From Psammoneis japonica (Eukaryota): a DNA stretch of 64,000 bases. Positions 26,719 to 58,920 of the stretch are shown piece after piece. Every line of letters begins with the position of its first letter. Position 1 is the stretch's first letter. Position numbers and translations under genes: made by a program. The stretch lies in assembly GCA_008632985.1 (NCBI GenBank), contig QPGO01000019.1, positions 682,001 to 746,000 of the forward strand. The letters run 5' to 3'. Below the pieces are notes generated by a model. It did no database searches. It was not told the origin of the DNA and worked only from the letters and a program-made list of their open reading frames with translations.

Positions 26719-26745
26719 AATAGGATGCGCGCATCAATCTGTCAT

Positions 26746-27710
26746 TCACTCACAGTGTGTGCATTTTTGGAGCAATTGCTTCCTCATGGGTTCTATGCAG
26801 TGTCCACTCACACGGTCCATTTGGTCATCCTGCACCATGAAATGTTCCCTGGCAGCCACAATCGCCTGCTGAAAGTCGGCTCTGTGGTCAGGCTGGTTGA
26901 CAGCCACCAATTGTGCCTTGATTTGCAATGCCAACTGCAGGACCCTTTCTCTTGCCACGGCTTCTTCGTCCACAGCCCGGATCGCGGTCCATGTCCCTCC
27001 CCGCATTTGATCTGTGCCTGGCCTCAGATCATACAAAGCTTGCCACTGTCGCTGCAAGGCAACGTCTTTCCTTCTCAAATCGTTGCAGCCTTCAGGATGC
27101 GCAGCAGCTGAGATAGATGTTGCCTTCAAAGGAGTGGCACGGCATGGCGGTGGATGGATTTGTTGATGCTGTTAATCGCAGATTGCTCCCTCTCCACTGC
27201 TCTGTTGGCATCTGTGTCAGAATTTGCCCCGAGGCTTCTCAGAAGCAACGTTGAGTCACAGCTGTGCAGCATGTGCAGCCTCAATTCTGATTTTTGATGT
27301 CCCGCAACAGAGATTGGGAGCCCCAATTCTTTTGCGTCAAATGCGTCACCGTGAAGAAAGCATTGGAAACTCATTTCCGCTTTGCTGCAATTTTCCACTG
27401 CAACAACACAGTCGTTGTCTGAACAGTGTGTCTCGATTGATGACTTGATCAACTGTGCATGGATGTGCTTAAATTCGCGAGTGGTTGTTGCTGGATTTAA
27501 CAAAGCACTGTCAAGTGCGGTCGTTGCAGCCACAGCGGCACAACGGGCTTCTGCCATTGCTTCTGCCGATCTTGACACAGCAGCCTTTGCATCCTTTGCT
27601 CTCTGTTCCTCTGAACAATGAGCAGCATCAGCGTGAACAAAACCATCAACTGTCCCCATCATCCGGCGACGGAAATCCTCAGCAGTGGACAGACGGAGTT
27701 CATCTGACAT
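26746..27710 (-). pseudogene. Second accessory ORF relic (helical, Ala-rich) inside the TIR element
   Basis: Overlapping ORFs 27126-27710 and 26746-27129 with protein-like composition and few Tyr. Confidence 0.45.
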
Positions 27711-30700: not shown

Positions 30701-32925
30701 AAAGAAAAAACATTGATTGTGCAAAACAATGACATTCTTGCAACCCTGACACAAGTCTTGTCAGTGTTGCAAAACATTGAAATTTGGGTGAATCTGCACT
30801 TTCAGTGGTTCTGAGCAGCTTGCCCCCAGCAAACAAATCTGATGCACTGTGGTGCAACACACAACCAATGGGTGAACATGTTGCAAGGCCACAGCTTGTG
30901 CCAGGGCCAAGGACACTGATGGAGGAGGAGAATGGCAAAAGTTCTGATGGTGAGAGGGGCACCCTTGTGCCTTGTGTTTTGCTTTGTTGAAGCTGGGCTT
31001 GCTGCGGTGAGATGCAAGGACCCCCAGCAATGAAGTGTGGGCATGTTGGCAAACCAAAAGGCAGGGATGCTGCAAATTGCTTTTGGCTTTTGGACATCAT
31101 TTTTTTGCAACAGCTTGCAGACAAGAAACGGCATTCCTGCACCCTCATTCCAGCAGATGAGAGTGAGAAAAAATTGAGTGCAATGTGAGCACATTGAAAT
31201 GTTCTGAGGAGGCGCCGAGCTGCAGTGATTTCAAGAATGAGAGCACACACAGCTGCAAATGACAGCCAAGGACAGACTGGGATGCTTCATTGGAATGATG
31301 CCAAAATGCCACCCAGAAACAGCAGCAGCAGGCACTGCACTTGGGGGTGCAGAAAACTGTGCTTTCTTCAAAAGGAATTCAATGATGCCATTGCTGCTCA
31401 TCTGAACGATGACATGGCAAAATCACTTGCACCGTGCACACCACTTGCAACCACCCAAGTTTGCAAGTTTGCGTGCAAGGCATGTGTGAGCACAAGCTCG
31501 CTCACAAATTCTTGATTGAAGACAGTGGGGAGGCCAAGAGAATGGACCAAGAGTGCATTGAATGCATTGCCAAGCTTGTGAAGGCTCGTCACAGCACAAA
31601 ATCTCAGCACCAAATCCATGCAGAAATCATGCAGAAAAATGCGGCCAATTTTTCATCACTCCCCAATGAAGAAAAGGTGAAAGCGGTGTTCATGTTCAAA
31701 ATTGGATGTTCACAAAGGTGAAACCACGATGAACTCAACTGTCTGTGGACCCTCCTTGTCTAGAAACAGCCAGAAAAGCTCAAATTTGAACTTCTGGATG
31801 GCCCCAAAACTCAAAAATGGCATTTCTGGACATTTCTGGACAAAGATCTGCAGAAAGATAAAAAAACATTGTGATTTAGTTGGTGAAATGTGCTCAGATT
31901 TTGGAGCTGCTGACCATTTTTGAACCCCAAACAAGACATGGCAGTTGAAGCAGTTTTGCGAGCAACACAGAGCATCTGGACTTTGGTTGCACAACTGCAC
32001 ATTTGCTCAAATGAAAAGCGGGTGCTCGTGGGGTTCCTGCACCTCAACAGCTGTTGTTTGCGTGACTGTCTGTCTCACTTCAACTTCAGTTGAACAAAAA
32101 CTGTTGGTGAGTTTCGCTTGCCTTGTGCACTTTGTTTTGTGTCAAGATGCTGCAGTTCACCAAGCCCCCTTTTTTAGAATTGCTGGGGCACTGCATTGAC
32201 AATTTGCAAGAGTGTCAAAATTGTTTGGGGCACTTTTCAAGAAGCAGCCAGAGGAAAAAGTTGGAAATGCCCAGATCAACCACGGCTCTCATGCAAAGCA
32301 AACCACACAGCTCTCATCCTTTTTTGTCAGGCCAATGTGTCCTGGATGACTGGGCCAGCTGTGCCATGTGTTGCCCACCCCCTCCAAGAATGGCTGATGT
32401 TTTGTCAATGGCAGCTCTCCATCCCGCACAACAAGCAAGCACTTGCACCATCAGCACGTGCAGCAAGCTGGCTTTTTTTGTTGGTGCTCTGCCAATCTGT
32501 GCTGCTTTTTGGTGCAGGAAAAGAAAGTTGCCAGCACCATGCAAACACGACCCCCTGGAGGGAGTCCCAGAGGGGGGGGGGTGGCGCAGCATGCAGGAGA
32601 TTGCTCCAACTCTCTGTTGTTGCTGGCAACAGCTTCTCATGCAGCGGCACTGTGTGCTGCAAGAGCAGCTGGACACCATGATCTGCCCATTGTCTTTTGA
32701 GTCACTGTTCCATGAGAGTCTCAAGCAGAATCATTGCATCAACTTGAGACCATGCTCTGCACCTCAAATCTCACTGTGTTGCCAGATGACGCTCGGGGTT
32801 GGACCGCACACAACGACGAAGCTCTCGAGAGTCCTGGAGAGTCTTCAGCAGCCAAACAATTCAAAAATGACACAATCCCAAAGAGCTTGCTTTCGGGGCA
32901 TGTGAATGTACATGGCAACCTCTGT

Positions 32926-33005
32926 GGGCCCTCTCTCTAGAGAGAGAGAGCCACTAGCTAGCTAGAGAGCAGCTCTGCTAGCTACTGCTAGACTAGCTAG
33001 AGAGC
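32926..33005. repeat. CTAG/GAGA-rich palindromic low-complexity patch at the right edge of block A
   Basis: Palindrome ctctctctagagagag (32931-32946) followed by repeated ctag/gctagc. Confidence 0.8.
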
Positions 33006-37879: not shown

Positions 37880-38030
37880 CTGCACTCTAGGGCTACTCTC
37901 TAGCTCTAGAGCAGCTAGCTAGCTACAGCAGTAGAGGGCCCTCTACTAGAGCAGAGAGTAGCTACTAGCAGGAGCAGCTAGCAGCTTAGCAGCGGCAGTG
38001 GTCAACTCTCTAGAGAGTGGCTCTAGAGCA
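37880..38030. repeat. CTAG-rich palindromic low-complexity patch at the left edge of block B
   Basis: 18-bp palindrome agtagagggccctctact (37930-37947) among many ctag/agct units. Confidence 0.8.
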
Positions 38031-38286
38031 TGCAGACAGGCACCACGAATTGTTTTCAGTGCTGAGTTCAACAGCTCAAAATCCCTTCAATTCGAAAAAG
38101 AGATGCCAAGGGCCCACATTGAAGATTTGGTTCACAATGGCCAAAGAGAGAAACACATCAACAAAAGAGATCAACCATGGGAAAAAAACCTGCTGCACAA
38201 CCAAGCCAAGGGCAAGCTGCACAAATGTTCCTGCTTGGCCGCAAGGTGGAAGCCTGGTGCACAGAAAGGCACACAGTCTTGGGACA

Positions 38287-39330
38287 CCTCTTTGCTTTCA
38301 ACAGCAGCTGCAAGAGTTTGATTCATGCTTGGAAGAGGACACATGCCAGCACTTGTTGGCTTGACATTTTGTGACCTCTTGGTGTGAGTGCAAGTCACTT
38401 TGGCTTCTCACAGCTTGTGGCGCTGCTGGTGCACAAAGCAATGCATGGCACACAAAGACATTGTGCACTTCTCTCTTGGGCCACAGCTCTGAAGATGCCA
38501 TGTGGGCTCAAGCCACACATTTTCTGGATTGCCATTCATTGAAGCACCAGCTCTTGCAATTTGTTTGCATCATCAGAGCAGGTGCAACATCATTGCCAGA
38601 CACGTCAGAAGGGCACAACAGCAGAAAAACCTTGCTGGATGGCACAAAATGGGTTTCTTGCTGCTTTTTCATTGCTGTCTCCATGGCATTGCAGAGGTTG
38701 TGTTGCTCACATGATTTTGATTCTTGCCAGATTTTGCCCTGCTCACATCCAGTTTCATTGCACAAACACCCCGAACAAGTCTCAGAAGGTGGCAGCATGC
38801 AGGACATCTTGTGCACTTGGCCCCGTGTCCTCTCTTCTCTGCAGTTTTCAACTTTTTTGTGCCACAGCAATGCTGGGAGCTTGGAAGCTCTTGGAGTCAG
38901 GCACAAAAGCTGGGCACATTGCACAAAGTGATGCAAGTGCCACAAAGAGGTGCTTCTCTGCACATGGGCCACACAGCTGCTCATGTCTCAAAGCTCCTCT
39001 GTGCAGCATGTGCAAGCTGTGCAGCTGGATGTTTTGTCGTTGGCAGTCTTGTGAAAAAAAAAATCAAAACAGATGCCCAAAGCACTTGCACTGCAATGGC
39101 ATTTCCTTGCTCTGAGCAAGCAAAAAGAAACCAATGAAAGCATTGGATGCACCTGAGAAAGAGCTTGAAAAAACTTTCCAAAAGCAGCACGCAAGCATCT
39201 CAAAAGAGCACAAGCACTGTTGCAGGGCTTCCAGCGAGCACTGTCACAAGCCCTGCTGTGATTCTGCCACCCCTTTTGTGTTGCAGTTGCTGCTGCAACA
39301 CCAAACAAGCACCACAATGACTGTGCAACA
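38287..39330 (-). pseudogene. Mutated paralog of 48890-49900: MYND-finger 3' end plus about 900 bp downstream of the ARM-MYND gene
   Basis: Colinear shared blocks ctctttgctttcaacagca, aagtctcagaaggtggc, ggaagctcttgga and aaaaaactttccaaa. MYND WYC reads WCC here. Confidence 0.8.
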
Positions 39331-39596
39331 TCCTGCAACCCCTCTCTGTGACCATTGGTGCACCTCAGGACAAAGTGCACATGGAGAGGGGGCTGTGTTG
39401 ATTGTGCATGTCTGGGCACTGCTGTGCTTTCCTGTGTGGGGTGCCAACACCAAACAAGCATTGCAATGACTGCATGTCATCCTGCAACCTCTCTCAGTGA
39501 CTGTTGCACCTGGAGACAAAGTGCCCATGGAGAGGGGCCATGTTGACCGTGCTTGTCTGAGCGCTGTTGTGCACTTTCCTGTGTGGGGTGCCAGAG
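39320..39596. repeat. Two degenerate direct copies, about 148-bp period
   Basis: catcctgcaacc...gacaaagtgc.catggagagggg...tttcctgtgtggggtgcca occurs at about 39320-39447 and about 39468-39593. Confidence 0.8.
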
Positions 39597-40082
39597 CTTC
39601 CTGACACAGCAGAGCCCCTTCCCACAGCAAGGGCTGCAGACAAATGACTGCCAACTTCCGGACTGACAAGCACTTCCACGATGGCATGCCCTGCTTTGTG
39701 CAACAAAGAAGGGTGGAAGGCTCTGCCGCAGTGCTGGCCTTGCCGGTTGTCGCCGCAAGAAGCACAAGCAGCAGAGCGCCAACAGCGTGCTGGTGGCAAA
39801 TGTGGTCTAGACTGGGAAACAAATGGTGCTGCAGTGCATGTGCCACTTTATTTCTTCATCTGTGAAAGGATGATGCAGGGCTTCAACCATGGCTTGAGCG
39901 CCTCTGGAGCTTCCTGCAGCAGCCAGCTGCGCTGACGACGCTTGCCAACTCTCTCACACAAGAGACCTGCACTCCCAATCTCATGCATTTCACATGGGTG
40001 GCTTCCATGTCCTTTGGAACTCCAAACTTGATCACAAATCACAAGATGCGGTGGATGGATGGCTTCAACAACAGTTGGGATT

Positions 40083-40316
40083 AGTCGAGATGCAGTCCTG
40101 CAGCTGAGCAGGATGGATGAGACCTCGGAGGTTGGCAGCAATGTGAACAGCGACAGAGGCAAACAGACGCTTGTTGAAAGTCGTTGTCTGGAAATTGTGA
40201 CGAATGTCGTTGCTTCTGTTTGAATCGATTTTGTGATGAGCCAATCATTTCGAAGAGAAAATCTGAGTCTGGGTTGCAGTCGTGAGATGCGACCAGAATG
40301 ACGTTGAGTCGTGACT
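40083..40316 (-). repeat. 3' LTR (234 bp), zero TpA
   Basis: Gapless match to 47091-47324 except at 12 dinucleotide sites. Confidence 0.97.
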
Positions 40317-40337
40317 CTCCCTCTCAACCGAGAGAGC

Positions 40338-43300
40338 TCACCAGCCCATAAGAGCCTTTCTAGCCGTGCGGAACGCATCGGTCCGTAGTCCCTTCGTGAA
40401 CTGATCGGCCAGTTGCTCTAGAGTGCTGACAGGTTGGACATCGATCTCCAATTGTTCGACTTCAGTCCTAAACCAGTGGTGCGGGATGCCGATGTGTTTG
40501 GTTCGCGGAGACAACTTGGGCATGCGTGCGAACTTGAGGCACGCGGAGTTATCTTCGCACACAACGGACGTAGGTGGGACATTCTGTGCTACAGGCGAGT
40601 CATCGGTGCCTTGGGTTGCGAGCTCAAAAGCCTTGGAGTGAGTCGTGACAGGGTTTTGGCGGTCAGACTTTCCGAATGCGTGGTGGTTGAGCTCCTTGAG
40701 AACTTCACGAATGGGGATGAGATCGCGCATGGCTTGAGAAAGTGCGACACATTCCGCTTCCACAGTCGACAATGCTGCAAGAGTCTGCAGCTTGGACACC
40801 CAGATGAGCGGGCAGCCGGCATGGCAGACAAGGTGTCCAGTCCTGGACTTGACAGAAACTGGGTCTTGACCATCTTCCACACCAAATAACCCCGCGAAGT
40901 CAGAATCGACGTAACAATCAACTCAATGATCTTGCGCAGGCTTGAGAATGAGACCTTCAGTGGCAGTTGCTTTGAGGCATCGGAGTGTCCGCTTCACTGC
41001 AGCAGCGTGGGACGCTCGGGGCACAAACGAGAATCGAGCTGCTTGATGTGTGGCACATGCAATGTCTGGCCGGCTGTTCGCTGCCAAGCACATCAACATT
41101 CCAACAACTGAGCGACAATCGCAGGGTTCATCAAAAGGTGGGCCGTCCGTGTCGGCACCAACAGCCGCAGGTAGAGCTGGAGTAGATGCTCCATTGCAAT
41201 CCTGCATCTGTGCGGTGCGTAGGACCTTGTCAATTAGACCGGGTTGAGTGAGTAGAAATCGACCCTCGGAGAGCTTTTCGATCTTGACACCGAGAAAGTT
41301 GCCGACTTCTCCTTCGTCTCTAAGTTCAAATGCGTGGCGATGTTCGTCGTCGGAGACTCCTAACTTGCGAATTTCGGCTTCTAGAGCTTCAGCTGAAGCT
41401 CCAGCAAAAACGGTGTCGTCGACGTGCACCACACACATCATGCCCTCTTTGAAATACAAACAGGGATCTATGGCTGAAGGCACCCATCCGCGCTCGGTTA
41501 AACCAGCTCGTAACTTCTCGTAGAAGCCCTTGGGAGACTGTTTTAGGCCGTGTGGTCCTTTCAAAAGTTTGAGAACCACATTGAGTCCCGACCTTGGCGC
41601 AAATCCCTTCGGCGGTGTTGCACAAACTTCCTCGGCGATGTCAGCTTGGCAAAAGGCTGTGGCACAGTCCACCTGTCGTGCAGTCCATCCCTCCTTTAAT
41701 GCCGCAGTGAGCATGAGTCGGGTGCTGGACCATTGCACAACCGGCGCGCAGGTTTCGAAGCAGTCGACTCCTTCTTTCTGCAAATCACCGCGGACGCAGT
41801 GTCGGGCCTTGTGCTTGAGAGGGGTTCCATCTGGGAGTCTCTTGAGCTTTGGTGCCCATGTGCCTGGAAGCACATTCATGTGCGGCTGACGCTCGACTGC
41901 TTTCCAGGCTCGACGATGCATAAGTGCGTTGACTTCAATTTTCATCGCCTTGGTCCATTCGTCGGCGTCCGGACCTTTCAGAGCATTGTGTGACGAAGGC
42001 ATGTCAGGGTCCTTGGTTTTCTTGCTAGCTGCGCAGGCTCGTGGATCGCCGATGTTGATGGCGCCACTGTCCAAATCCGTCTCGAGAGTCGCCAGATGCG
42101 CCAGTTGAGCCTCGTGTCCAATCGGCAGCGGCACTTCCTCGACGGAGCTGAAGCAGACCTCATCTACAAACTTGGCAGAGTTGAACTGTCCCTTGGTTGA
42201 CCGTGAAGACCGTCGCAGCCCTGGCACTCCCTCTGGATTCGTCACAGGAGGTGTCTCGACTGGGGGAGGAGCTGTTGGTTCCGTCGGCGCTTCGGGTGGC
42301 GGAAGTCCGTCACTGTCTTGAGGTTCAGGTGGCTGAATTGGCGTAGAGTCCGCAGAGTCTGCAGGAGTTTGAGTCGCAGGTGGGACTGGTGGCGTTGGCT
42401 GCTGAGTCGCAGGTGCGACTCGATCGGCAACGTCGTCGCGAGAAGTGGGTGAATCCGGCACAGTGATCGATGGAGCAGGCTCAAAATGCCCGTGAATGCG
42501 TGTTGCTCTGGCCAGTTCTCGTTCTTTACGTTGACGCTCTGGAGGGGTAAGCCACTCATCGTGTGAATGAACTGCCTGATCCTTCTCCAGAGGGATGCAT
42601 GTCGATTGGTTGAGGCACAAGTGTTCCCAGTGATCAGGTGGATCCGTCTCCCTCTCAATTGATGGTGCGGCAGTGAAGAGATCGTCAAAGACCACATGAC
42701 ACTGAGGTGTGACACTTCCAGTTTGAAGATTGAGGACCAAAGGAACCTCACTGGAATGGATGGTGCTGAGTCCCACGAACAAAGCGCGACGAGTGCAAGG
42801 CTCCCAATGCGGGAGCTTCTTCCCGGAAGCGAGGGTTGGGTCAAGTGCGTACGCTGGACATCCCCATGTGTGAATGTCGCGCAACCGATGTCTTGGCACT
42901 GTTGAACCGGTGAAAATGTCCGCTGGGCAATGTCCTTTGGAATTTGGGGTGACATTGTAGACACACGTGGCACAAGAAACTGCCATGGGCCACAGGGAGC
43001 TGTCAATTCCCCCCTTCCAGTGGATTGATGCATGAAGCAACATCGCTCTCGCCATGTTGGAGATGCTGCGGATGCCCCGCTCTGCGACGCCGTTCTGATG
43101 ATGGGCGTTGGTTCCACAAAAACGGAGACGTTGTTCATGTTCTCGCACATGTTGTACAAAAGCGTTGGCCTTGAAAGCGCCACTGTCGGCAAGAAATTCT
43201 TGGACGATGACCCCGTGGTCCAAAGCATGTTTCTCAAACGCTTGCTTCGCGCGCATCGTCTCAACAGCGGAGAAACCCAGTTGGTGCCCGACCTGGACAT

Positions 43301-46300
43301 GGCCAGAGGCGTGGTCGACAAAGATGCAACCGCCCTTGAATTGCTTGGACGTGGCTTTGCCATAAGAGTCGAAGGTGCGGCCTAAAAGGCGCGACTCAAA
43401 ATGATCAACGCTGACAGCCTGACCCGGTCGAAGATGGTCAGCTCGAAGGGCCCCATCGCGTTCAGGGACTGTCGACTTGTGAGTAGATCCAAGAGAGCGT
43501 CTGTGACCTTTAGCATGTTCGCATGCCTCGCATCTTGGGTGGTCACACTTCGCTGCGGACTTGAAACGGTTCGAAAGGAACGGAACTGCGCGGAGAAGTG
43601 CTTGGACGCGACCAAAGTTCAAATGGCCAAAACGGGCGTGCATTTCGAGAAGAAGCTTTTGGCCTGCCGTGAGGTTTTGATTCTCCTCGTTGAGGATCTG
43701 AAGGTTCACTTGAGGAGCGGCAGATGCGCCCTTGGTCATCGACGCAACAGGCAAGTGGCTTGATGGATGACACGGCACGACCAACTTGCCCATCCCGTCA
43801 ATGTGTGAACGGAAAGTGGTTTCATCGCCCTCATGCTTCCCACGCACCCCCTTCTCTTCGTTGAAGAGGCGTTGAGGCGACAGCAGGCGCTGACGGGCTC
43901 CAGGGACGTAGTGTGCCATGGTGTTCAGGTGGATGGCAGCCCCACTCGGCGTTGTGAACACCCACGCAACCGGACCGGTGCCCTGGATGGTGAGACCGTT
44001 GGCAATCCCATTGATCTGCAAGGGTTTCTTGGGAACAGTCACAGGCCCCGTAAAATCATCTTTGTCGGGGGCAATGGCTGACGTGGCACCAGCATCCATG
44101 ACGACCGTGAGAGCCTCGTCCGACAGACCGATGAGTGCCTGCGGATCGGATGCAAGGAGGTCGGCTTGTGATTGTCCGGTGAGCAGTTGGATGGTGGAGG
44201 CACCACAGACGACTGGTCTAACACTTGCTTCCTCCAATGGTTCCACAGGATCTTGAAAATGGGTGGTGTCCACGATGTGATGCGGCAGACAGAGCTCGTC
44301 AAACCGGAAGAAATCCGGGCTGAAGTCCTCAAGAGCGTCAAAGAAACACTTCTGGTCGTCGAGAGATTCCAGTTCCTCACAGGTGTCAAAGAAGGCTGAT
44401 TCGTCTATCGCATCAGACCATTCAGCTACTTCTGGGCTCTCCCAGCAGGCCTTGAGACGAGTGCTCAGTGCGTGTGACGGATGGCGCGCGACAAACTCGG
44501 TGAGTGCTTGCGTGCCTTTGATCCTGTGACATTCGAACAGTGACCCCGCATCTAACACTATCCGGTCATCTAGCTCTTCCACAATGTGGTAGACTTGAGA
44601 GCTGGCGGTCGAAAAACGACTTGGCACGTTCGAGAATGGACACTCGGGCTGTTGACCGGCGTAAACTGCTGACCACACCATCACTGCAACGGATGGGACC
44701 ATCCAGGAGGCTGGAAACCCGTGCAAAGTTGGGAGTTTGCGCTGGCGGCGTAGAGCTCGAGGGATGCATGGGATCGGAGCAAAGCAAAGATGCAGTGCCG
44801 TTTCCCAAAACATGGCGGCGAGCCAGAATGTGAACAGCTTGACTCAACCCAAGAGTGAGCGACGCGAAGTGGGCTCGTCTTCGACGTCCTCGTGACAATC
44901 ATCCGTGTCCAGGACCTCTGGATCGTAGAAATCGAAGCCACGACACGCAACACACGGAGGTGAGTCGCAGTGTGCGTCTTCAAAGTGTACGTCGTGTTCA
45001 AGGATGAGATCTAACTTGGTGTCGTCTGACAGCACATCCGTCAAATGTGCGGGAGCATCAAAGAACTCATCTGGATGCTTGACAGAGTACAGCTTCGAGG
45101 CCGGAAACAACTCAATAGCCGGTGGTTCGTTTTCAAAGGTAGAGAAAGCGTCGGAGTGTTCGTAGAAGTCATCGGCGTCTTCGGGAGTGACAGTCTCAAC
45201 CACGATGGGAGACACGACTGGATCCACGACTGAGGTGAGTGCAGGTGGGCTCGTTTTGATGCAAACCACCTCAGTGCTGACGACTGCATCGCTCTCCCTC
45301 TCGGCCGAAGAAGCCGGAGTAACAACAATTGCAGCAGCAACAGGGGCGGAACAGAAATCCGGGTCGGTGACGGGATCCGTAGCCGCGCACCACATTCCCG
45401 TGAAAACCAACTCGTTGGGGTCGGATTCGTCTCCCTCTGGTGCCTTGGCAGTCTGAGCGGGCGGACCCATGGGCACGCCACTGTCCGGATCAGCAACGGA
45501 AGACAAATTCCCGGCTGGGGTCTCCTTGGGAGGTTGCCTGCGGTCGTCAGCATGTTCCGCGGTAGAGTGCTTCTGGTGGATTCCAGGTTTGTCGGCACCC
45601 TTCGCCGTGCACGTGGCACACCACTTCCATTCCTTGCCATTCTTATCCTTCTTCGTTTCTCCGTCAAATTTAGCATGCCAGGCAGCGATGGGTCACCTCT
45701 TCTTCTTGGAAGGGTCGTCTGCAGGCGGCGGATTGGGAGGAGGATCGTCGCGCGGCGGTTTGGCGTTGCACTTCGGACACGTCTTCTTGGTGCACCCCTC
45801 GAGACCGCAACCACAACAGTGCTTCGTCTTCCCAGGGTCATCCGTAGTCGAAAGATTACTCTCGGGTAGCTTGGCGACTAATGCAGGCCATTCCCCGTCC
45901 TTCACGAGTTCGTTGTGTTGCTCTTGAATCCACGCAATGATGCCGACCGGTCCGAGCGTTTTGCAATCGCTGTCGGACACGATGTCAGCAGGATTCTTGA
46001 GGCGGCACTTGCGTTCCACAGCCTTGACATCGTCGAGCTTGTTGTAGACTCGGCGATTGAAGTGTTCAGAGGACGTAGAGGAGATCTTGTGGAGCAGCTT
46101 GGAGCTTGTGTTCGCCGGAAGCGCGTGGTCGGTCTGCACAATTTTCACGATGCGAAGAGCTTCGGTGGCAAAGTCCGTGCAATCCTCGCCGGGATGGTCA
46201 ACCAAACTGAGGTCTTCTAGCTGCTTCTTGGCCGTCTCAACATCCGTTAGAGCGCTGGCATTGCAAGTGTCGAGAGCCATCATGAATAGAACAGATCCAG

Positions 46301-46928
46301 GGCAGTCTTGGTAGTCCGAAAGATGGTTGAACTTGGTCTCGATTTTCTCGCGAAAGGTGTCAGTGATTCTTGAGTGAACGAGAAGTTGAGAGAGCCCGAC
46401 ATCGTCGAGCTCGATCTCGTCGTACTTGGCATCATCGGTGGCTGCTTTCCCAACCGTGTACTCGTTCACGAGATCGGTCACAGTAAACTCGTGAAGATGG
46501 TCGAAGACATGTTGAACCTTGTCGTCGCTGTCCTTGACATGGCAGAACGTCTGCTGACCGTGGGCTTCTGCTGGATCTCGAACAGTCTTGACGAAGTGGT
46601 CCTTGTCAAGCTCGTTGATGGGACTGTCCGAAATCTCAAGTCGACCGTTGAACTTGGAAGTCATTGCGGAAGCTTGTTGATCGCGGAGAGATCGTTCTGT
46701 CGAGTCGAGAGCCTTGGGATGACGGCGCTGAGAGGCGAGTCGGCAGGTTCTGTCGTTGGATTGTTCGCAGTTGTTGTTGAGTTTGGAACCACCAATGTAA
46801 ACCCCGTGGGTTGGGTGAATTCCACCACGTAACGGCTTGGTTGGAGCCGGAGGAGCGGTCGCCGCGGCGTTGGCGGCCATTGCATCGGCAAACGCCTTCG
46901 CCAGAACATCTGGATCGATGGCAGCCAT
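40338..46928 (-). pseudogene. Single-frame gag-pol (2197 codons) with three internal TGA stops and many Tyr to His/Cys changes
   Basis: ORFs 45693-46928, 44844-45506, 40923-44813 and 40338-40880 share one frame. Motifs MDAGA, HARFGH...CEAC, HHQNGVAER, KARHCVRG, PHGLKQ, HVDD, YVDSDFAG and EAECVALS. Confidence 0.93.
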
Positions 46929-47090
46929 GACAGAGAGTGCAGTGTGGGAGGTTCTTGTTAGAGTGAAGACGAGAGAAGCGAGAGAGACTCAGCTATTTCC
47001 CGGGTTTGCTTCAAAATCAAAAACCGAAAGCGTCCGTGACGATGACTCGGTCAGGAGCTCTCGTCAACGCGCAAATTGGTCTCTGCGACC

Positions 47091-47324
47091 AGTCGAGACA
47101 CAGTCCTACAGCTGAGTAGGATGGACAAGACCTCGGAGGTTGGTAGCAATGTGAATAGCGACAGAGGTAAACAGACGCTTGTTGAAAGTCGTTGTCTAGA
47201 AATTATGACGAATGTCGTTGCTTCTGTTTGAATCGATTTTGTGATGAGCTAATTATTTCGAAGAGAAAATCTGAGTCTGGGTTGTAGTCGTGAGATGCGA
47301 CCAGAATGACGTTGAGTCGTGACT
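47091..47324 (-). repeat. 5' LTR (234 bp), retains 10 TpA
   Basis: Direct repeat of 40083-40316 at offset 7008. Confidence 0.97.
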
Positions 47325-47534
47325 GGATTCACTGATCTGCAACGCCGTCGGTGCGCAGTGCGAAGGCGGAGTAGAGCTGATTCGTGCATCGACTCGAATA
47401 AGTGGCGGTTCAATGTTCAATCGTGCATCGTGCGTGGTGCGGATCATCTCGGCGACAAATCAATAAAATGCGTGTCGAACCGTCGTGACTTTTGTGAATC
47501 ACAAAAACGAGGAAACAAGCCGCACAAATCAAAA

Positions 47535-48452
47535 ATGAACTTCAGTCACGAAGCAGTAAAACTGGTGCTCCTCGGAGAAAGCGGTGTTGGAAAGTCCACC
47601 ATCGGCAACGCCATCTTAGAAAAGGACTTTGTTGGCCCCTTTCGCACCAGCTATGGCGCAGAGTCCTGTACAGCGCTGCCTCAGGTGGCCCGAAACAAAG
47701 CCGTGGTTGTGACGGACACGCCTGGAAATCCAGACTCGTCGCCCAGAAAGACTAGGTATATCTACGATGTTATTGCTCAAGAAGTGGCAAAGGGCCACAC
47801 GGCAAAGCTCTTTGTGTACAAGGCCGGGAGAAATACACCACCCGACTATGCTCGTCTTGCTCTGCTCTGGCGCGAAATCGCGTCTGCTCCCGGTATAAAC
47901 GTTCTGTTCATCAACGACGACCGAAAATTCCTTATACCTCCAAGCACAGAAGAGTACAGGAGAGAAATAAAAAAACAGTTCAATGCGATCGTCGAATACA
48001 CGGGTATAAATTTCAGCCTGTGGACTCATTTTACGTCGGATAGCATGGTACACGAACTTGCCATACTTGTGGAAAAGCTCAAGAAATATGCAATTCCGGA
48101 AAAGACTACGTTGAGGAGCTTTCAAGATATCAAGGATTTTGTTATGAAAGTGGACGATATTCCACATCAGATCAGGAACAATAAGCGGAAGAGGGCTTGG
48201 CGTACTACTGCCGCTGTGGGAAGCGCGTGCGCTTCCGTTGCAGTTGGCGTTGCTTCAGGTTTCGTGGGTCCCGAAATACTGCCTATTCTGGCATTCACCG
48301 GGGCTGGGACGGCTAAAAATTGGAACAAGCAACGCAAGCTTGCCGCGGAAAACCGAGCTTTGGCCAGGGAATACATGTTTGCCTCGGATGAGGAAATTCA
48401 AAGCTTCCGTGAACTGGTTGATCTCGTGGAAAAAGCCGAGGCTCTCGTTTAA
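47535..48452 (+). CDS. AIG1/GIMAP-like P-loop GTPase with C-terminal hydrophobic segment
   Basis: G1 LVLLGESGVGKSTIGNAIL, G2 SCT, G3 VTDTPG. C-terminal AAVGSACASVAVGVASG. Confidence 0.8.
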   Translation: MNFSHEAVKLVLLGESGVGKSTIGNAILEKDFVGPFRTSYGAESCTALPQVARNKAVVVTDTPGNPDSSPRKTRYIYDVIAQEVAKGHTAKLFVYKAGRNTPPDYARLALLWREIASAPGINVLFINDDRKFLIPPSTEEYRREIKKQFNAIVEYTGINFSLWTHFTSDSMVHELAILVEKLKKYAIPEKTTLRSFQDIKDFVMKVDDIPHQIRNNKRKRAWRTTAAVGSACASVAVGVASGFVGPEILPILAFTGAGTAKNWNKQRKLAAENRALAREYMFASDEEIQSFRELVDLVEKAEALV

Positions 48453-49770
48453 ATTGTAGAAGATTCAGAGCCGTGGACTTCAGTCAAATTGAAGACAAGG
48501 ACTAGAGCAACTCAGTGCTCACAGGCAGAATGATATATGGCTGGAGGTGATGGCACTATATTGTCAAAGTGCAGTCAGAACGTTTGTTCATGTGTGCATC
48601 GCTATGGTAGTGCTCGTGAATGCACGTAGTTGAATTGTTGGTCCAACTGCCAATGCTGCTCTAAGCATAGCGAGATAACCTAGAGAAAACGTGCATGTTT
48701 CGGGAAGCTTGCGAATGCAAGGGAAGTGTTTCGGAAAGAACCACTTTTCTGTGTCCTCCAACGAAGAATTTCTCTCGTAGTGCTTAACGTGTCTTGTCTC
48801 CATTGAAATGTACAGTATTGGACAAACCACAAACCTTTCTGCCTGGTCGCAAGGCGGAAGCCTGACAGAAAGGCGCATGCTTGAGAAAGCTCTTTGCTTT
48901 CAACAGCAATTGCAAGAGTTTGATTTTATGATTGACACATTTGTCGTCTTTACATCGCGATCTCTAGAGTATACACAGGTGGGTACAATTCGCTTTGCTA
49001 GCTTGGCACCGGTGAAGCGACGCGCATTAGTGTAGAGAAATTGTGCATATCTCTCGGATTGCAGTTCCGACGATGTTATTGGATCCGTATATTCTCCGAA
49101 ATGCTACTGATTCGATTGCTATCTTGGAGCTGGTGCCACATCGCGAGAAACGTCTGAAACGGCATAAGAATAGAAAATCTAGCTGATTGGTGCAACATTT
49201 TACTCGTGGCTTTAGTTACTATCACTGGTGTGTTGTAGAGGTAGGATACCTTTCGATTCCTACTAGATTGAACTACTATTCCAGCTCTATTTTCATTGCA
49301 TGAACACAGAGTTAAGTCTCAGAAGGTGGCTTACTCGTACAGGATATCTTGTCAAAGTCTCAAAATATATATCTTCTTAGACTAGCGTCTGCCATTATAA
49401 CGCTGAGAGCTCGGAAGCTCTTGGAATAGGATGATGTACGAAAACTAGACACGTCACAAAGTGATACAAAAACTAATGAGCTACTTCTCCTATGTGCAAC
49501 ATGGATCACAACGGTTCATGTTTCAAAGCCCTACACGGTATGCGTAAATTACACTACTGGACGTCTCGTTGGCTACAAGCCAAGCCAGCGAATCGATTTT
49601 CAGATTGGAAAAGGCGCAGCGGCTTTTTGGAAACAGATATATCCAAAGCATGCACGCTGCAATGATGTTTCCTTGCTCCAAGCAAGTAAAACAATTCATG
49701 AAAGTGTTGGATGCATCCAAGACAGAGAGCTTGACAAAAAACTTTCCAAAGGAGCAACGCACGAGGTATC

Positions 49771-50860
49771 TCAAGAACGAGCGTTGTTGCGGGGTTTCCA
49801 ACGAGCCTTGTTGCACGCATCCTTGTGATTCGGCCAATCCTTTGTGTTGCAATCGCCATTGCAATACCATACAATGTCACAACGATTGCACACCATCATA
49901 TCCGCTGATTCCTTTCCGCAACACTTGCATTTAGGAACAACCGTGTTCATGCAGCGGATCGCATTGGTTGCAAAAATCTGAATACTGCGCTTTCCTGGGT
50001 GAGATACTAGAGCTTGCTCCATGACACAGTCACCTCCTGCAGCAAGGACTGCAGATGGATAACCACCAACTTCTTGACTGACAAGCATCGCCGTGATGGC
50101 GCATCCGGATGCTTGAATATCCGCATCGTCGGGATGCTGATTCATGCAAGAAAGTAGGGAGGGGATTCCACCACAATTGACTATCTCCGCAAACACAAGC
50201 GGAGCGTCAATGACGCTCGTGGCAAAAAGGATCGAGAGTAGCGAAAAGATGGCATTGTAATACAAGTGCTTTTTCGTCGTTTCTTCCTCTGTAAAAGGAC
50301 ACTGCAGGACTTCGACTATGGCCGGTACGCCTCCAGCGCATTGTACGTCCGTAACATTGACAGTCGCCAACTCGCCCAAAAGATCCACACCGCGACTCAT
50401 ACATTTCAGGTAGGTGGTGGTGGTTCTCCAAGCCGCTGGAATGCCAGCTTTGATTACATGGTGGACAGCTTGAACAACAGTTGGAATTCCGCCGCTCTGA
50501 GCAATCGCGGCGGCGCAGGCATAACTCGGCAAGCTATCGGCAACCCCAGAAAGAGCAGCACAGCAGAAACACATACCAGATGGGTCATTCTGATGTTTTC
50601 GCATAAAGACAAGAATACTTTCAATGCCTCCAGCCTCGACAAATGCCGAAGCTGCACGAGTCCTGTCCTTTTTGAAGGCACGAAGGAGCTCCGCCATGAT
50701 GGCCGAAGCGTTCACATTGCTCTCGTCGCTTCGCAGTTTCGCGACCACAGCCTGCATGCGGCCAACGATCTGCTCGTCCTTCTTCTTCTCGAGCTAAAGG
50801 CACATTTGCCACCGACTTGATCTTGCCTTTGACTCGGTTACGACGGCTTTTCTTTCCCAT
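49771..50860 (-). CDS. ARM-like repeats + MYND zinc finger, copy 1 (1-nt frameshift near 50780; intact ORF from 50757)
   Basis: C-terminal CKCC...CNRC...WYCNGDC...WPNHKDAC. The family start MGKKSRR at 50860 is out of frame with MQAVV by one base compared with the 63388 copy. Confidence 0.8.
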
Positions 50861-51671: not shown

Positions 51672-52820
51672 TCACAAGGTGGACCTTTCCCAATCTACTG
51701 CTTGGTGGAGAGTAGGTTTCCACCTCGCTTTGTTGCACGCCTTTTTGTGATTCTGCCAATCCCTCTTGAGGCAATCGTTATTGCAATACCAAGTTGTATC
51801 ACACCGGTTGCACACCATCATTTCATCCGCGGATTCCTTTCCACAACACTTGCATTTTGGGACCACTTCCATCATGGACAAGAGCGCATCGGATGCGCAC
51901 ATTTGAATGTCTTTGTTATTTTCCTCATGCAGTACAAGACTTGTCTTCATGACGCAGTCTCCTCCCGCGGCAAGGACCGCCGATGGATTGCCACCAATAT
52001 CGGGATTGGCAAGTACCGCCGTAATGGCGCATCCCGGTGCTTGAATATCCGCAACGTCCGGATACTGCGAGAGACAATCCAATAGGCACGGGATTCCGCC
52101 ACGATTCGTCATATCCGCCAGTGCACGGCCGAGCGCAACTTTTCTCATGGCCATCATTATGGATGCTAGGGAATTCACGGCACTGCGACATGTCTGCCTT
52201 TTTGTTTCTTGATTGGAAAATGGATACTGCAAAACGTCCACAAGGGCCTCGACGCCACCGGAGCGTTGTACACATGATACGTGATGGTTGCCCGCCAATG
52301 CCGCCAAAAGCTCCATGGCACGGCTCATACAATTCATATTGATGCGTTCCATGTCGGTCGGGATTCCAACTTGAAGAATCACGGTACGAATGACTTGAAT
52401 GAGAATTGGGATTCCGCCGTTCCGAACCATGGCGGTGTGAGTGATAGTGTTTGGTACGGCGGGGCATGCTGCGACGGCAGCAAGAGTGGCACAGCATGCG
52501 CACAAGTATGATAGGCCATGTGGATGATTCTTGCGCATAAAGACAAGCATACTGTCAATACCACGAGCCTCGACAAAGTCACAAACGGCACGATCCATAT
52601 TATGATTGTTTTGGGTGTTGTTGAACACTTGACCGAGCTCGTTCAAGACATCAGTCGCAGAATCGACGTCTTCAAAGTCGCCTCGCAATTTTGCAAGCAG
52701 TTGCTGCATGCGGCTCGCATTGTTGTCTTTTTCCTCTTTTTGAACAGCATTTGGAGTGGTGCTGTTTGTCACCGACTTGACTTTTCGGCCGACTTTGGTG
52801 CGGCGGCTTTTCTTTCCCAT
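51672..52820 (-). CDS. ARM-like repeats + MYND zinc finger, copy 2
   Basis: MGKKSRR start at 52820, GGIP repeats, and CKCC...CNRC...WYCNNDC...WQNHKKAC. Confidence 0.88.
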   Translation of the reverse strand: MGKKSRRTKVGRKVKSVTNSTTPNAVQKEEKDNNASRMQQLLAKLRGDFEDVDSATDVLNELGQVFNNTQNNHNMDRAVCDFVEARGIDSMLVFMRKNHPHGLSYLCACCATLAAVAACPAVPNTITHTAMVRNGGIPILIQVIRTVILQVGIPTDMERINMNCMSRAMELLAALAGNHHVSCVQRSGGVEALVDVLQYPFSNQETKRQTCRSAVNSLASIMMAMRKVALGRALADMTNRGGIPCLLDCLSQYPDVADIQAPGCAITAVLANPDIGGNPSAVLAAGGDCVMKTSLVLHEENNKDIQMCASDALLSMMEVVPKCKCCGKESADEMMVCNRCDTTWYCNNDCLKRDWQNHKKACNKARWKPTLHQAVDWERSTL

Positions 52821-53089
52821 GGTGTATGATGATGATGGATTAGTGCTGTGGTGCATTTGAATGTGCTGGTGTCGCTGTGCGATGGTCGGTTTGCGCCTTT
52901 GGTCCAGATGACCCATGGTAGGTTTGGCGCGCTTTCTTTTTCGTCTTTTAGGGTTATTTATGGGATTGTTCATGACGTCAAAACGCAAATTGGTGTCATT
53001 TTCGTAATTTTCCGTCCAAACAGAAGAAAAAGAAATCGTTCTTGAACGCTTTTTTTTTTTCCCGTCAGAGCAACAAACGCTTTCTCAAA

Positions 53090-56000
53090 AATCACAAACA
53101 ATTGATCCAGCTTTGTTTTCTGGCACAAAAAAACAGCATGGGCGATCGAAGAGAAGCGGCGTGCTTTTGATGAGATCATGGTCCTTTGCTATCATCTCCT
53201 CAGTGCACAGAAGAAAGGGGCACAGCAGAAGGGAAGTCCGCCACCACTGCCACTCTACATGACTCCAGCCACCACCATCACCTGGCACTGGTGGTGGCAC
53301 AGCCACTGTGTGCTTCTTTTTCTCAATCAATTCAGTGGAAAGCAGTTGTTGCTCAGCCAAGGCAAGTTTTGCCAACTCTTCTTTGTCACATGGCTTGAAG
53401 AGGCACAGCACATTGTTGATTCATTGTTGGAGAGACATGCCTGCAACTTGCTTGTGAATTTTTCCACCTCAAGCTCCTGCTTGCAGCAGCAGAGATCATG
53501 AGCTGTGCAGCAGAGGGGACATTGTCAAATTTTGTTTTTCAGCTTCTCACAGCAGCAGCACTTTTTTGGTGTGGGGTTGGCAAAGCCCACACACAAGCAT
53601 TTCAGAAGAGGGGCTTGGCTTGTGGCTGGGAGCTGGCTCCTGGCTTTTTAGCTGAAAACCTTCTTGTGGCTCCACAAAGACTGTCCTCTCCTTGAGCTGG
53701 CTCAGCTTGTGTGGCAGCAGAAGGCAGCACCAGCAGAATCAAGCCAGCATGTCATCTAACCTGCCTCAAGCACAATGGTGACAAGCAGCAGCAAAAAGCA
53801 AGCACATGGGCCATCACATTGCAAGAGATTGTGGCTGGAGAAATGCTGCCAACTTTGAAGACTTGGCAGCTGTTGACTTCATGATGCTCTTTGCTTGGGG
53901 AGTGACGATGGTGATGTCAAGTGGTCTGCAATGACTCATGACAATGGCAACAATTCATGAGTCATTTGTCAAACAGGATGAACAAGATTGCAATTGGTTG
54001 GCTTGGGGGATCATTGCAGGAGTTGCAAAAACAAGTTCACAGCCTGACATTGCAATCACAGGCACCAGTGCAACTTTTCCATTTTCAATGTGTTGCACAG
54101 AGCTTGAGCAACTTTCTGATGTGTGCCATTGGTCTGAAGATGCCTCCCAGTTCCCCTCTGTGGGGTGTCAGATCTGACATGTCACCTGCAATTTGGTTGA
54201 CGCGTCTGCATCTGTGAGTGCGGCCTTTGCTTGGAAGGAGTGTGGGAGCCATCCGTGATGCACACAGCAATGCCATCTAGAGAACTTCTTTTGCTGGGGC
54301 CTCCAAAGTTGGTTGAAACCATGGGAAATGAAGCATCACTCTGTGTTGCTGAGTGGTCTCTTTAGGGTGGCTGGAGTCAAGACAGGGGAGCTCCTGTTGA
54401 CAAAATCTTGATTCCTTGCCTTTGAGTGTGGGTTGGGAGGGTGTCGTGAGGGGCCACATCAATGAATCATCCATTAAATTGACAACATGCTCTGCAGCTC
54501 CTGCATTGTTGAGGCAGTCATGTGCATGACTCAATCTAAGTCTTGGTCCTCTGAAACACACCATCCTCCTGAGTTGAGTGCAACCATGGTGTGTTGGGCT
54601 GTTCTTTCCATGTTCCCACTGCTCTCCTCAATCTGAGTTGATCATTCCATCTGATGGGACAAGGTGGCAAGTTGTGAGCACTTCTTGCCAAAGTCTGCAG
54701 CAGGGCTGCTGTCCATTCTTGTCCATTGTCCTTTGTGATCCAGCAGGGTGACATCTCCCACAGGTGTGTTTCTGCTGCAGAGTTGTGTTTCCAGTTGTCG
54801 TTGACCCACCTGAAGGATGCCAAGGACCAGCATCTTTTCTGGAACTGGTGCACCTCCATGTGACAGGATGCCACCCTTTCCAGCAGTTGAGCATTTCTTG
54901 AATGCTCTCCAATGCATCTTTGCAGGTTGTGCCCAGGTTTTCTGGAGCGCGGGGGAGATCATCTGCATCATCCACAAAGGTGGTGCAGCACACAGAATGA
55001 TGTGCTTGTTTGGAGACAAGGGTTGCTTCTGCCCTGATTCCAAATCCTTCAGCACCCTCAGTGTGTTGACAACAGGAAAGCTTGCTGCTGACCATGTTGC
55101 TCTTGTGCCACTCCATGTCCTTGGAAAATGCCTTGCAGTGGAATCTCCAGGGCCATGTGCAGTTCTTTGGAATCCCTGTGTGCAGCTCAAACACAAGGTT
55201 CATTGCCTTGTTGTCTTTGGGCACTGCTCCTGCTCCAAATCTTCTCATGCATGGAGCTGCAATGCAGTGCAGGATCCAATCACAGCATGACTTGGCATCT
55301 GTGCTGTTGGTTGCTCCTGGTCTGTGAGATTGTCAAAACACATCACCCATCAGCACTTTGTTGAGCACACACAATGTGGCTCTGTGCCACCATTTTCCAT
55401 TGCCACGTGCTTCCCTGGGGATTGCCTTGTGAGTCTCCATGTGATTCGCCAGCACTCATGCACAACACTTGTTCATCTTGTCACACATTGCATCAAACAA
55501 GACAGTGATTCATGATTTCTTGATGTGAGAAGATTTGGTCTTTTGTTGGAATCATTTCATCTCTTCCACCTTGGTCCAGCATTTGGGTGCACAGCCATGT
55601 TTTGACAGTGTGGCAGACACACATGAGGCTTGCTCGACCGGCTCACAAAACAAACAAATCAAAAAAAGGAAAGCGCTTGGCGCAGAGTTCTGTGGCGTGA
55701 CACAAGGCCACAACCTGACAGAGTGCCAAAGGTCAATGATGACAGAGGCATGAAAGACTCCCCAAGCACTGGGACTGTGATGCCACAAGCACCAGCAGAA
55801 GAGAATGAGAGAAGATCTCAGAGAGATCTGATCGTCCATCCAGAAGGTCTGTCCATCATCCATGTGCAGAGTCTGTCCATTGCAGAACAGGCACCAGACT
55901 GACATTGCCTTGCCTGCTGGGTTGCCAAGCAGCAGACCTGGACCATCACCTTTGAGAAAGAACAGCAGCTGTTCCTGCAAAAAGCAAGGAATGCCAATGG

Positions 56001-56440
56001 GAGTGCATCAAGTCTTGTCTCCTCCCCCCAAAGCCAGCCAGTGGAGCTCTTTTGGACCCCCAGCACCAGATCACAAACAAGACAAAGACAGCCATCATCG
56101 CTGGCAACTTGTGTCAATTTTTGCATGGCTTTGCACACAACATGCCTCTGTCACCCCACCAAGCAAATTGGTCTTGACAAACCACAAAATGCCGGGCCAA
56201 AAGCAAGCCGCCAAACATTTTGGAGATGGCACTCATGAGATCACTCTCCTTTCTGAGAGTGTTGTTGCTGCTCGATTGTCGATTGTCAAACACAAAGATG
56301 GTGTCACTGGCAATGGTGCCAGTGATGACAGACAGCATTGATGTGCTCTTGTTGTTGCTGCCAATGTTGTCACACTGGATGATGATGGAATTGTGAGAAA
56401 AGCAGAGAAGATTGCTTCAAAGTGAAGGCTGGAAACACTG
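53090..56440 (-). mobile_element. Heavily mutated non-LTR retrotransposon relic (TpA/CpG-depleted block C)
   Basis: RT motifs DAKSCCDWI (55273-55299, compare DAKSCYDRI) and TTFVDD. Many frameshifts. TA is almost absent. Confidence 0.72.
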
Positions 56441-56841
56441 CACATGCGCACGGGCGGGCGGGCGCGAATCGCGCATGAGTTCGCACTGTGGCTGACAACC
56501 AGCCTCGATCAAAACGGGCGGGTTTGTCGAGCGAGGTTGGACAACATTATTTTTTCATTTTTCTCGGATTTGTAACTTGCAGGTTAGAGTCTGCCTTTTA
56601 ATCGAAAAACTGGGTGACTTGTGTGTTTCAAGATGCTTGTCAACCAACGGCCACAACATTTACGTCTGTGAACAGGGCTGATCGTGGGATACGATGCGGG
56701 GGAAGTTTTGGATCGCGGCAATGCCACGAATAAAATCCGCGATGGTCATTCCCACCGCCGGATGGGGATGTCAGAATTTCGTTCTCACAACAAGCAAAAG
56801 GAGCAACAAACGAGCGCATTTGATTCCTAAAGCCAGCAACT

Positions 56842-58422: not shown

Positions 58423-58920
58423 CTCTGTTGTGTCTGTACTTCCGTCAGTCGGAATTCAGAGCGTATTTATGACAGAAACAATGTGCTTTCCACGCACCGG
58501 GTCTGTCACGCCTTGCGTTTGCCACATAGCGATTGCTAATGTTGTCATCATTCTCTGTGGCTGAATGGTTGCTTGCTACAGTATAGCTTGCTTTTTTCTC
58601 AGTTACAATGGTCTTTCTTTTCGCCATGGTCGACTGTCGCTGTTTTTTCTGCGTTTTCCGCTTGAAAGGCGGTCCAGATGGGCAAGTTTCTCAATTTGGC
58701 GTTTTTTCTTTTCTTTTTTTTTGTTCTCCTGTCCGAAAGTTCAAAAATACCAAAAACGATGGCAGAAACGATGAAAAAGTGCGCTCTCAAAAGCGCAGAA
58801 CCGGCCCATCTGGACCGGTGGTCCTTGATACGCGATGATCCGCGGAAGCTCGTTTCTCGCTTGAGTTTGATCATGATCAAAAAAAGCAAAAGAACCTCCT
58901 CCCAGCATACACAGCCGACC

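Follow-up and report, generated by a model that had tools for sequence, protein, structure and literature searches.

A TpA-directed mutational signature in an integrated Copia retrotransposon of the diatom Psammoneis japonica

How does a Copia retrotransposon come to read HVDD where its relatives read YVDD, with a series of further conserved motifs altered in the same manner? The question is raised by a complete Ty1/Copia long terminal repeat (LTR) retrotransposon on the minus strand of a 64,000-nucleotide stretch of Psammoneis japonica DNA (NCBI GenBank assembly GCA_008632985.1, contig QPGO01000019.1, positions 682,001 to 746,000), hereafter the window, in which the element occupies positions 40078–47329. 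The original prediction, made from the letters of this locus, held that TA dinucleotides are the ancestral state, that they have been turned into CA or TG, and that the element was disabled by missense changes while its frames stayed open. We find that TA to CA/TG is the direction of change, that such changes arose in the DNA after insertion, that the two LTRs of this one copy fared very differently, and that the same signature marks a host pseudogene and other blocks of the window. These observations probably reflect TpA-targeted hypermutation at the DNA level, of the kind reported for Bigelowiella natans (10.64898/2026.01.13.699255), acting on silent chromatin after Copia integration.

The Gag-protease-integrase-reverse transcriptase-RNase H polyprotein frame (40338–46928, minus strand) extends from an ATG at 46926–46928 to a TGA at 40338–40340 as one frame with three internal TGA codons. 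With these stops read as X, it was aligned to 60 of the first 67 hits, the partial-coverage hits (P0003, P0030, P0034, P0039, P0054, P0063, and P0066) being excluded. Columns in which at least 80% of the 60 relatives agree were taken as conserved, which gives 549 such columns. The seven altered motifs reported earlier are all present in the minus-strand frame and in the same places. In the reverse transcriptase (41172–41909; Pfam RVT_2, E 2.2e-31), the YVDD box (41415–41426) reads HVDD through a His codon CAC at 41424–41426, where Tyr is found in 60/60 relatives, and LYGL (41544–41555) reads PHGL, within PHGLKQ, through CCA CAC at 41550–41555, where Leu and Tyr are each found in 60/60. The RNase H region (40341–40922), recognized by alignment columns and by the motifs EAEC, CEDN, and PHHWF, has TGT in EAEC (40749–40751; Tyr in 57/60 relatives) and CAC in PHHWF (40479–40481; Tyr in 55/55). 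The protease triplet at 44088–44096 is D-A-G (GAT GCT GGT) in place of D-T/S-G, a codon junction T|A having become T|G; its GAT GCT (44091–44096) stands where the relatives have Thr (33) or Ser (21) in all 54 cases. The two remaining motifs are less clear. KARH (CAC, 41799–41801) lies in a column that is Phe in 31 relatives and Tyr in 29, hence ambiguous, while CEDN (TGC, 40557–40559) aligns with Tyr in 36, His in 12, and Phe in 8, so that His is natural here and Cys is not. Relatives that naturally carry His or Cys at the altered positions would have spoken against an ancestral Tyr; no such pattern is seen, apart from the 12/56 with His at YEDN and the Phe/Tyr mixture of the KARY column.

Tyr is lost throughout the conserved columns, being retained in only 3/22, against 466/527 for other residues (Fisher p 1.9e-14). 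The lost residues have become Cys (10), His (5), Phe (2), Trp (1), and Val (1). The resulting 15 changes from Tyr to His or Cys far exceed what is seen in the relatives: a leave-one-out count gives none in 41 of them, one in 18, and three in a single relative, and the maximum among the 117 scorable of 120 hits is also three, reached by one hit. The Tyr content of the element is 0.77%; the 120 relatives have a median of 3.04%, and none falls below 1.55%. The other substitution classes that had been predicted are found as well, with I>V (8), I>M (1), I>T (1), L>S (3), L>P (1), V>A (4), and T>A (4) beside the Y>C (10) and Y>H (5), and nearly all of them lie at TA-containing codons or T|A codon junctions.

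For each mismatch at a conserved column, the single base change that would restore the consensus residue was sought. The 80 mismatches comprise 33 changes from TA to CA or TG, 4 from CG to TG or CA, 5 other A>G or T>C changes, 17 transversions, and 21 that need multiple steps. On the sense strand, 20 of the 33 TA changes lead to TG and 13 to CA. The share of A:T>G:C changes that fall in TpA (33/38) compares with a null of 0.28 drawn from the present composition of the element (p 8e-14) or of 0.15 drawn from host DNA (p 2e-22). Composition agrees with this spectrum. The observed/expected ratio (o/e) of TA is about 0.22–0.23 in the element and 0.56 in the host DNA of the window, whereas 37 of 68 metagenome loci, those with matches of at least about 2.3 kb, give a median of 0.66 and no value below 0.38 for the coding DNA of relatives; G + C (GC) content is 55% in the element compared with 47% in host DNA. 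By codon phase, TA o/e is 0.16/0.35/0.23 in the element, while the 15 of 68 metagenome loci with an open reading frame (ORF) of at least 1200 codons have medians of 0.52/0.62/0.73. Phase 1–2, which holds the Tyr codons, is thus the most depleted, the opposite of what selection on a working element would permit. Three of the metagenome Copia relatives (L038, L001, and L061) have normal TA in Tyr codons and are TA-poor at silent phases, with a phase 3–1 o/e of 0.17 in L038; this could reflect a GC-rich host codon bias or the same pressure filtered by selection in working elements. That TA is ancestral, as originally proposed, is borne out by three independent polarisations that agree, namely the conserved protein columns, the LTR pair, and a mutated host gene compared with its paralog.

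The LTR pair dates the changes. The 5′ LTR (47091–47324) and the 3′ LTR (40083–40316), both on the minus strand, are 234 bp each, have the termini AGTC...GACT, and are 94.0% identical. Between them, 14 bases in 12 sites are mismatched, every one of the TA type, and the rest of the 234 bp is the same in both. Ten of these sites read TA in the 5′ LTR and TG (7) or CA (3) in the 3′ LTR, and at the remaining two one LTR has CA and the other TG; all 13 CpG are intact in each. Both LTRs of a newly made LTR retrotransposon copy come from one template and are identical at the start. Since the pair now differs at TA-type sites only, the TA changes arose at the DNA level after insertion. TA is retained at 10/12 sites in the 5′ LTR and at 0/12 in the 3′ LTR (Fisher p 6.7e-5). 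The 5′ LTR, with its 10 TA, has an o/e of 0.55, the level of host DNA, while the 3′ LTR has a TA o/e of 0.0 beside a CG o/e of 1.05, a contrast that fixes the direction of change once more.

The difference between the LTRs follows their surroundings. The 3′ LTR adjoins a block at 38025–40077 with a TA o/e of 0.02 and a CG o/e of 0.19, and a gradient of TA o/e runs from this flanking block (0.02) through the 3′ LTR (0.0) and the interior (0.14–0.34) to the 5′ LTR (0.55) and the flanking gene (0.53). Once-identical LTRs with unlike fates in a single element point to the chromatin neighbourhood, not homology, as the guide, and we infer from this one LTR pair that targeting follows position or chromatin state and not sequence identity. 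The CA and TG products show no order along the 3′ LTR, where six runs were counted by eye, near the expectation for random order, and at the 500-bp scale no strand-coordinated CA versus TG patches were found beyond host-level noise. An intact ORF for an AIG1-like GTPase (47316–48452; TA o/e 0.53) faces the 5′ LTR head to head.

The assignment of the element to Ty1/Copia is given by its LTRs and target site duplication together with RVT_2 and the domain order. The duplication is a perfect 5-bp match, AATCC in the sense direction, read directly at 40078–40082 (downstream copy) and 47325–47329 (upstream copy) on the minus strand. Directly after the 5′ LTR, at 47078–47091 (minus strand), is a primer-binding-site-like stretch, (T)GGTCGCAGAGACC, similar to TGGT...CAGAG, which may resemble the initiator-Met-tRNA type of Copia primer-binding site. 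A putative polypurine tract, GGTTGAGAGGGAG, adjoins the 3′ LTR on its upstream side (40317–40329, minus strand) and is assigned by position and purine content alone. The integrase region (42639–43682, minus strand), with zinc finger, DDE core, and SH3-like domain, is recognized by Pfam gag_pre-integrs and SH3_retrovirus and by invariant columns 1103–1454; the integrase-associated domains lie upstream of RVT_2, as in the Copia order. The polyprotein is colinear over its full length with the 60 diatom-type Copia polyproteins (2100–2250 residues), and a profile built from these relatives matches 40341–46751 with a score of 2407. The closest relatives are 50–58% identical, and the sole named ones are from Fragilaria crotonensis. 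The copy is complete but not intact, having three in-frame TGA, HVDD, DAG, and 80 mismatches in the 549 conserved columns. No tandem repeats were found.

The stop codons have a different origin from the Tyr losses. Enumeration over all sense codon pairs, junctions included, confirms that TA to CA or TG is unable to create a stop, so the three TGA must have another source. They lie on the minus strand at 45693–45695 (codon 432 of the stop-to-stop frame, where relatives align poorly), 44844–44846 (codon 715), and 40923–40925 (codon 2022), and split the frame into 431, 282, 1306, and 194 codons. The expectation that frames stay open therefore fails, and with it the view that this copy would look intact to ORF-based annotation. 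Disablement by missense stands in part: the missense changes are real, nonsense contributes as well, and the loss of activity that they would entail is a probable reading of the sequence. In the column of the third stop, the relatives have Arg (23/60) or Gln (12/60), and family contigs of a public DNA run (X1) that contains the stretch have G at 40925 (depth 3212/3246), which together indicate a CpG transition from CGA to TGA. Among the differences inside the element that set this copy apart from the family majority, the 34 with the best support, a sample weighted to CpG sites peculiar to this copy, include at least 13 with CG in the family and CA or TG here. CpG decay is thus under way in the element yet slow, its CG o/e still being 0.95.

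The signature is not confined to the retrotransposon. TA-poor blocks with sharp edges (for example at 38024/38025) occupy about 15825–33000, 38025–40077, 53000–56548, and 61645–62907, some 24 kb in total, and have a TA o/e of 0.057, a CG o/e of 0.33, a CA/TG o/e of 1.7, and TA-free runs of up to 2011 bp. As only TGA stops are left in them, they hold long ORFs in several frames on both strands. A Pfam search of 19 further block ORFs gave no match for 18 and two sub-threshold matches for one. The block next to the 3′ LTR (38025–40077, minus strand), outside the element, is a TA-free, CpG-poor, frameshifted, and truncated Arm/zf-MYND pseudogene that is colinear with 48828–50333, single copy by run depth, and without sign of retrotransposition. 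Over 671 bases aligned with its intact paralog, it keeps TA at 0/18 sites, 13 of which are now CA or TG, and CG at 4/26, of which 13 are likewise now CA or TG. The intact Arm/zf-MYND paralogs are spared by the signature. A saturated pseudogene beside spared paralogs means that the hypermutation also covers non-transposon DNA. No continuation of the pseudogene was found past the Copia element, from 47325 onwards. The window holds a cluster of at least four intact Arm-repeat/zf-MYND paralogs (49771–50793, 51672–53084, 58666–60006, and 63334–63999), which are found on both strands and encode proteins 42–63% identical.

A second, older, and frameshifted Copia element, identified by profile match from integrase to RNase H at 17242–19984 on the plus strand, tells a similar story. 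It keeps Tyr at 0/16 conserved positions (5 His, 5 Cys, and 4 Trp) and shows Arg changed to Cys, His, or Trp, as CpG decay predicts; no clear pair of LTRs was found for it. Inside the same large TA- and CpG-poor block, a plus-strand ORF at 23681–25123 has a weak match to a Plavaka (KDZ-type) transposase (E 2.8e-5, below the Pfam cut-off). Elsewhere in the window, the named proteins closest to a host subtilase at 1567–3528 come from Skeletonema and Proboscia and are no more than 48% identical to it; a protein-atlas comparison of the subtilase added no taxonomic information. Together, the relatives of the Copia polyprotein and of the subtilase point to a diatom or a near relative as the host, and not to Bigelowiella.

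The TA dinucleotides that survive point to a preferred context. Survivors in YTAR make up 17% in host DNA, 29% in the element (40076–47083), and 47% in the blocks, while those in RTAY fall from 29% through 9% to 4% (chi-square p 1e-4 and 9e-14). This bias towards YTAR and away from RTAY suggests that the preferred target is TA followed by a pyrimidine, 5′-TAY-3′. At the 14 LTR events, the base following the mutated A is C in 6, T in 4, A in 2, and G in 2.

The public run also gives a view of the Copia family and of the flanking block. Contigs were placed at a likeness of at least 80%. Flanking depth is 52–60, and bins in the element sum to 2300–7600, which represents many related copies and gives no copy number. 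From 39951 to 47558, summed contig depth is 40–140 times that of the flanks, and many joints bypass stretches of the element; the Copia family is abundant and includes deleted variants. Family contigs are variable at 519 places, of which 438 are transitions (A>G 111, T>C 114, C>T 112, and G>A 101). A 2935-letter contig with a mean word depth of 60 matches the TA-free block at 39000–40112 with 3 differences in 1113 bases.

A probable account of the locus is as follows. A recent Copia insertion was followed by hypermutation of the integrated DNA from 5′-TA-3′ to 5′-CA-3′ or 5′-TG-3′, in A:T to G:C transitions that affect either strand and are restricted to TpA, with TAY preferred. Roughly three quarters or more of the TpA in the element was removed in this way, converting Tyr to His or Cys, Ile to Val, Met, or Thr, Leu to Ser or Pro, Val to Ala, and Thr to Ala, without making stops; the YVDD box of the RT and the DTG triplet of the protease are among the many conserved sites that were destroyed. 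A much slower process, CpG to TpG or CpA, as expected from cytosine methylation, acted alongside and produced at least one of the three TGA. The LTR beside the saturated silent block was fully converted, and the identical LTR beside the intact gene was left nearly untouched. By analogy, the signature probably represents an active targeted defence of the type reported for B. natans. As for the chemistry, adenine deamination to hypoxanthine in DNA by a TadA/ADAT2-like enzyme is our tentative first choice, a little short of an even call. In the natural tRNA substrate of such enzymes, A34 follows U33, a context that would build in a preference for TpA. TA is palindromic, so thymine oxidation would give the same products, and an enzyme of the TET/JBP type is a distinctly less likely candidate; some other or unknown chemistry takes the rest of our expectation.

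Several points weigh against this account or narrow it. TpA does not account for five of the 38 A:T>G:C changes in the element. In the old pseudogene, 70 A>G or T>C differences in 671 aligned bp fall at positions without TA in the present-day paralog, which reflects either a noisy alignment (about 70–80% identity), change in the paralog, or a specificity that is not absolute over long times. The signature is found in 0/117 public relatives and hence is no general feature of the diatom Copia sampled, with the reservation that unmutated proteins are more readily retrieved as hits. The position effect is that of a single LTR pair, the run that supports the TA-free block may be the source data of the assembly and thus not independent, and the palindromic TA makes an attacked A indistinguishable from an attacked T. 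Enzyme, DNA modification, and de novo events are putative in this account, which is drawn from DNA sequence.

Two rival sources of the changes, RNA editing and error-prone repair, have points in their favour. An ADAR-like enzyme with a 5′-U preference could have edited double-stranded element RNA before reverse transcription, the edited copies then being inserted. The context fits, as A to G after U or T on either strand is what such an enzyme would leave, and a parent copy, itself edited or mutated, may have passed on some internal changes, the interior being impossible to time. The LTRs should then have started identical, yet they differ at 12 TA-type sites, which contradicts RNA editing as the sole cause. 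A host pseudogene without sign of retrotransposition is equally saturated, the block that contains the Plavaka-like DNA transposase ORF is just as poor in TA and CpG, and ADARs are not known outside animals. We consider this route very improbable even though the same likeness is remarked upon in the B. natans preprint (10.64898/2026.01.13.699255). Error-prone repair in methylated chromatin, in which a polymerase-eta-like enzyme recruited to mismatches would synthesize patches with A>G errors at WA motifs and no dedicated editing enzyme would be needed, is a second rival that we regard as improbable. Polymerase eta makes A:T>G:C changes at WA motifs in somatic hypermutation, and the loss of TA coincides with that of CpG in the old blocks. 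Although WA includes AA, just 1/5 of the non-TpA A:T>G:C changes is preceded by A, and no strand-coordinated patches are seen at the 500-bp scale. The LTR pair has 12 TA-type sites and no CpG change, so that TA loss needs no nearby CpG deamination.

Two further rivals would remove the mutational process altogether or reverse it. Some long-read basecallers systematically miscall modified motifs, and modified TpA in silent chromatin might have been misread as CA or TG, the more so as the platform of the assembly and of the run is not on record. The agreement of the run contig with the TA-free block is evidence against such an artefact; moreover, the run has records up to 315 kb long built of exact 31-letter words, unlike raw error-prone reads, and the blocks have CpG loss and frameshifts as well, while family copies vary at 438 transition places in the manner of real mutations. 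We therefore hold a sequencing artefact to be highly improbable. Change in the opposite direction, from CA or TG to TA as in a RIP-like process (repeat-induced point mutation), or a native poverty in TA owing to selection, to codon choice, or to acquisition from a genome itself poor in TA, could draw on the LTR differences, which taken alone are symmetric in direction, and on the three relatives that are TA-poor at silent codon phases. Such readings are hardly credible given that His stands in the element at the YVDD and LYGL positions that are Tyr in 60/60 relatives, that the Tyr-codon phase 1–2 is the most depleted, and that one LTR has a normal TA o/e of 0.55 and the other has no TA in 234 bp. 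The three stops and the broken protease triplet exclude selection for function as the cause.

We found one precedent for TpA-targeted hypermutation of integrated DNA. In an April 2026 preprint on B. natans, mutation-accumulation lines show two integrated viral regions that mutate at about 6e-7 per site per generation, almost only by A>G or T>C, those transitions all being at TpA; TpA-poor genes there are enriched for reverse transcriptase and DDE domains, and the authors propose an ADAT2-like DNA adenine deaminase (10.64898/2026.01.13.699255). The two cases are alike in the restriction of A>G and T>C to TpA with TpG and CpA as products, in a local effect against a normal genome background, in raised GC, and in TpA-poor sequences that are rich in reverse transcriptase and transposase domains. 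They differ in host and target, a chlorarachniophyte (rhizarian) and a viral region there, a diatom (stramenopile) with an LTR retrotransposon and a host pseudogene here. They differ in extent, a TA o/e of 0.45 in the viral region contrasting with saturation at 0.0–0.06 here, and also in the coupled CpG loss of older blocks, the LTR position effect, and the TAY preference found here. De novo events were measured in B. natans and are inferred for P. japonica, where the LTR pair, with 12 of 12 TA sites changed and no other difference in 234 bp, gives an indirect hint of a raised rate. The accessible preprint text contains no mention of diatoms, retrotransposons, or trinucleotide context. Full-text literature searches turned up no account of TpA hypermutation from a diatom and no other precedent, and term searches of Maumus et al. 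(2009; PMC2806351) and of a Rhizoctonia paper (PMC7884421) gave nothing relevant. New with respect to B. natans are the lineage, the target class, the proof of post-insertion change, the position effect, and the TAY preference.

Other systems share parts of the picture. Fungal RIP is likewise a dinucleotide-specific transition hypermutation of repeated or foreign genomic DNA that kills transposons and distorts composition. In ascomycete fungi, RIP converts C to T at CpA, which raises TpA, lowers GC, and makes many stops. The direction here is the opposite, with TA depleted, GC raised, and no stops from the process; unlike in RIP, the intact paralogs of the pseudogene are untouched and identical LTRs fare differently, so that duplication alone is not the trigger. 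ADAR and APOBEC3 in animals also leave deaminase-type, context-specific transition clusters in retroelements, and the 5′ U of ADAR resembles the TpA context. They act on RNA or on reverse-transcription intermediates, so that LTRs stay alike, whereas the LTRs here diverged after insertion, and APOBEC gives G>A and not A>G. CpG decay of methylated transposons yields the same TpG and CpA products, is present in the same blocks (CG o/e 0.33), and accounts for one stop in the element; it is much slower here, as seen in a CG o/e of 0.95 against 0.22 for TA and in the LTRs with 12 TA-type sites against no CpG change.

Should the process be that of B. natans, it would add a second, ecologically dominant host lineage and a second target class, the retrotransposons. 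A wider proposal, which we advance only tentatively and rate as possible, is that diatoms share with B. natans a TpA-to-CpA/TpG DNA-editing defence that is an old system of the SAR (stramenopile, alveolate, and rhizarian) supergroup. Such a defence would be guided by silent chromatin and not by homology, prefer TAY, act per site far faster than 5-methylcytosine decay, and spread over a whole silent domain including host pseudogenes, and with CpG decay it would drive silenced DNA to a state free of TpA and CpG, rich in CpA and TpG, and almost stop-free. The TAY preference and the contrast between once-identical LTRs are concrete signatures for finding the enzyme and its guide. Since stops are not among the products of the process, long ORFs in several frames persist in dead elements and pseudogenes, which may be annotated as genes. 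Dating by LTR divergence is badly distorted, the present pair being 6% divergent with no change outside TA sites. Tyr-rich motifs are lost to consensus building and homology searches, and local GC and dinucleotide composition are reshaped. If the account holds, diatoms would possess a candidate widespread genome defence that is the mirror image of fungal RIP.

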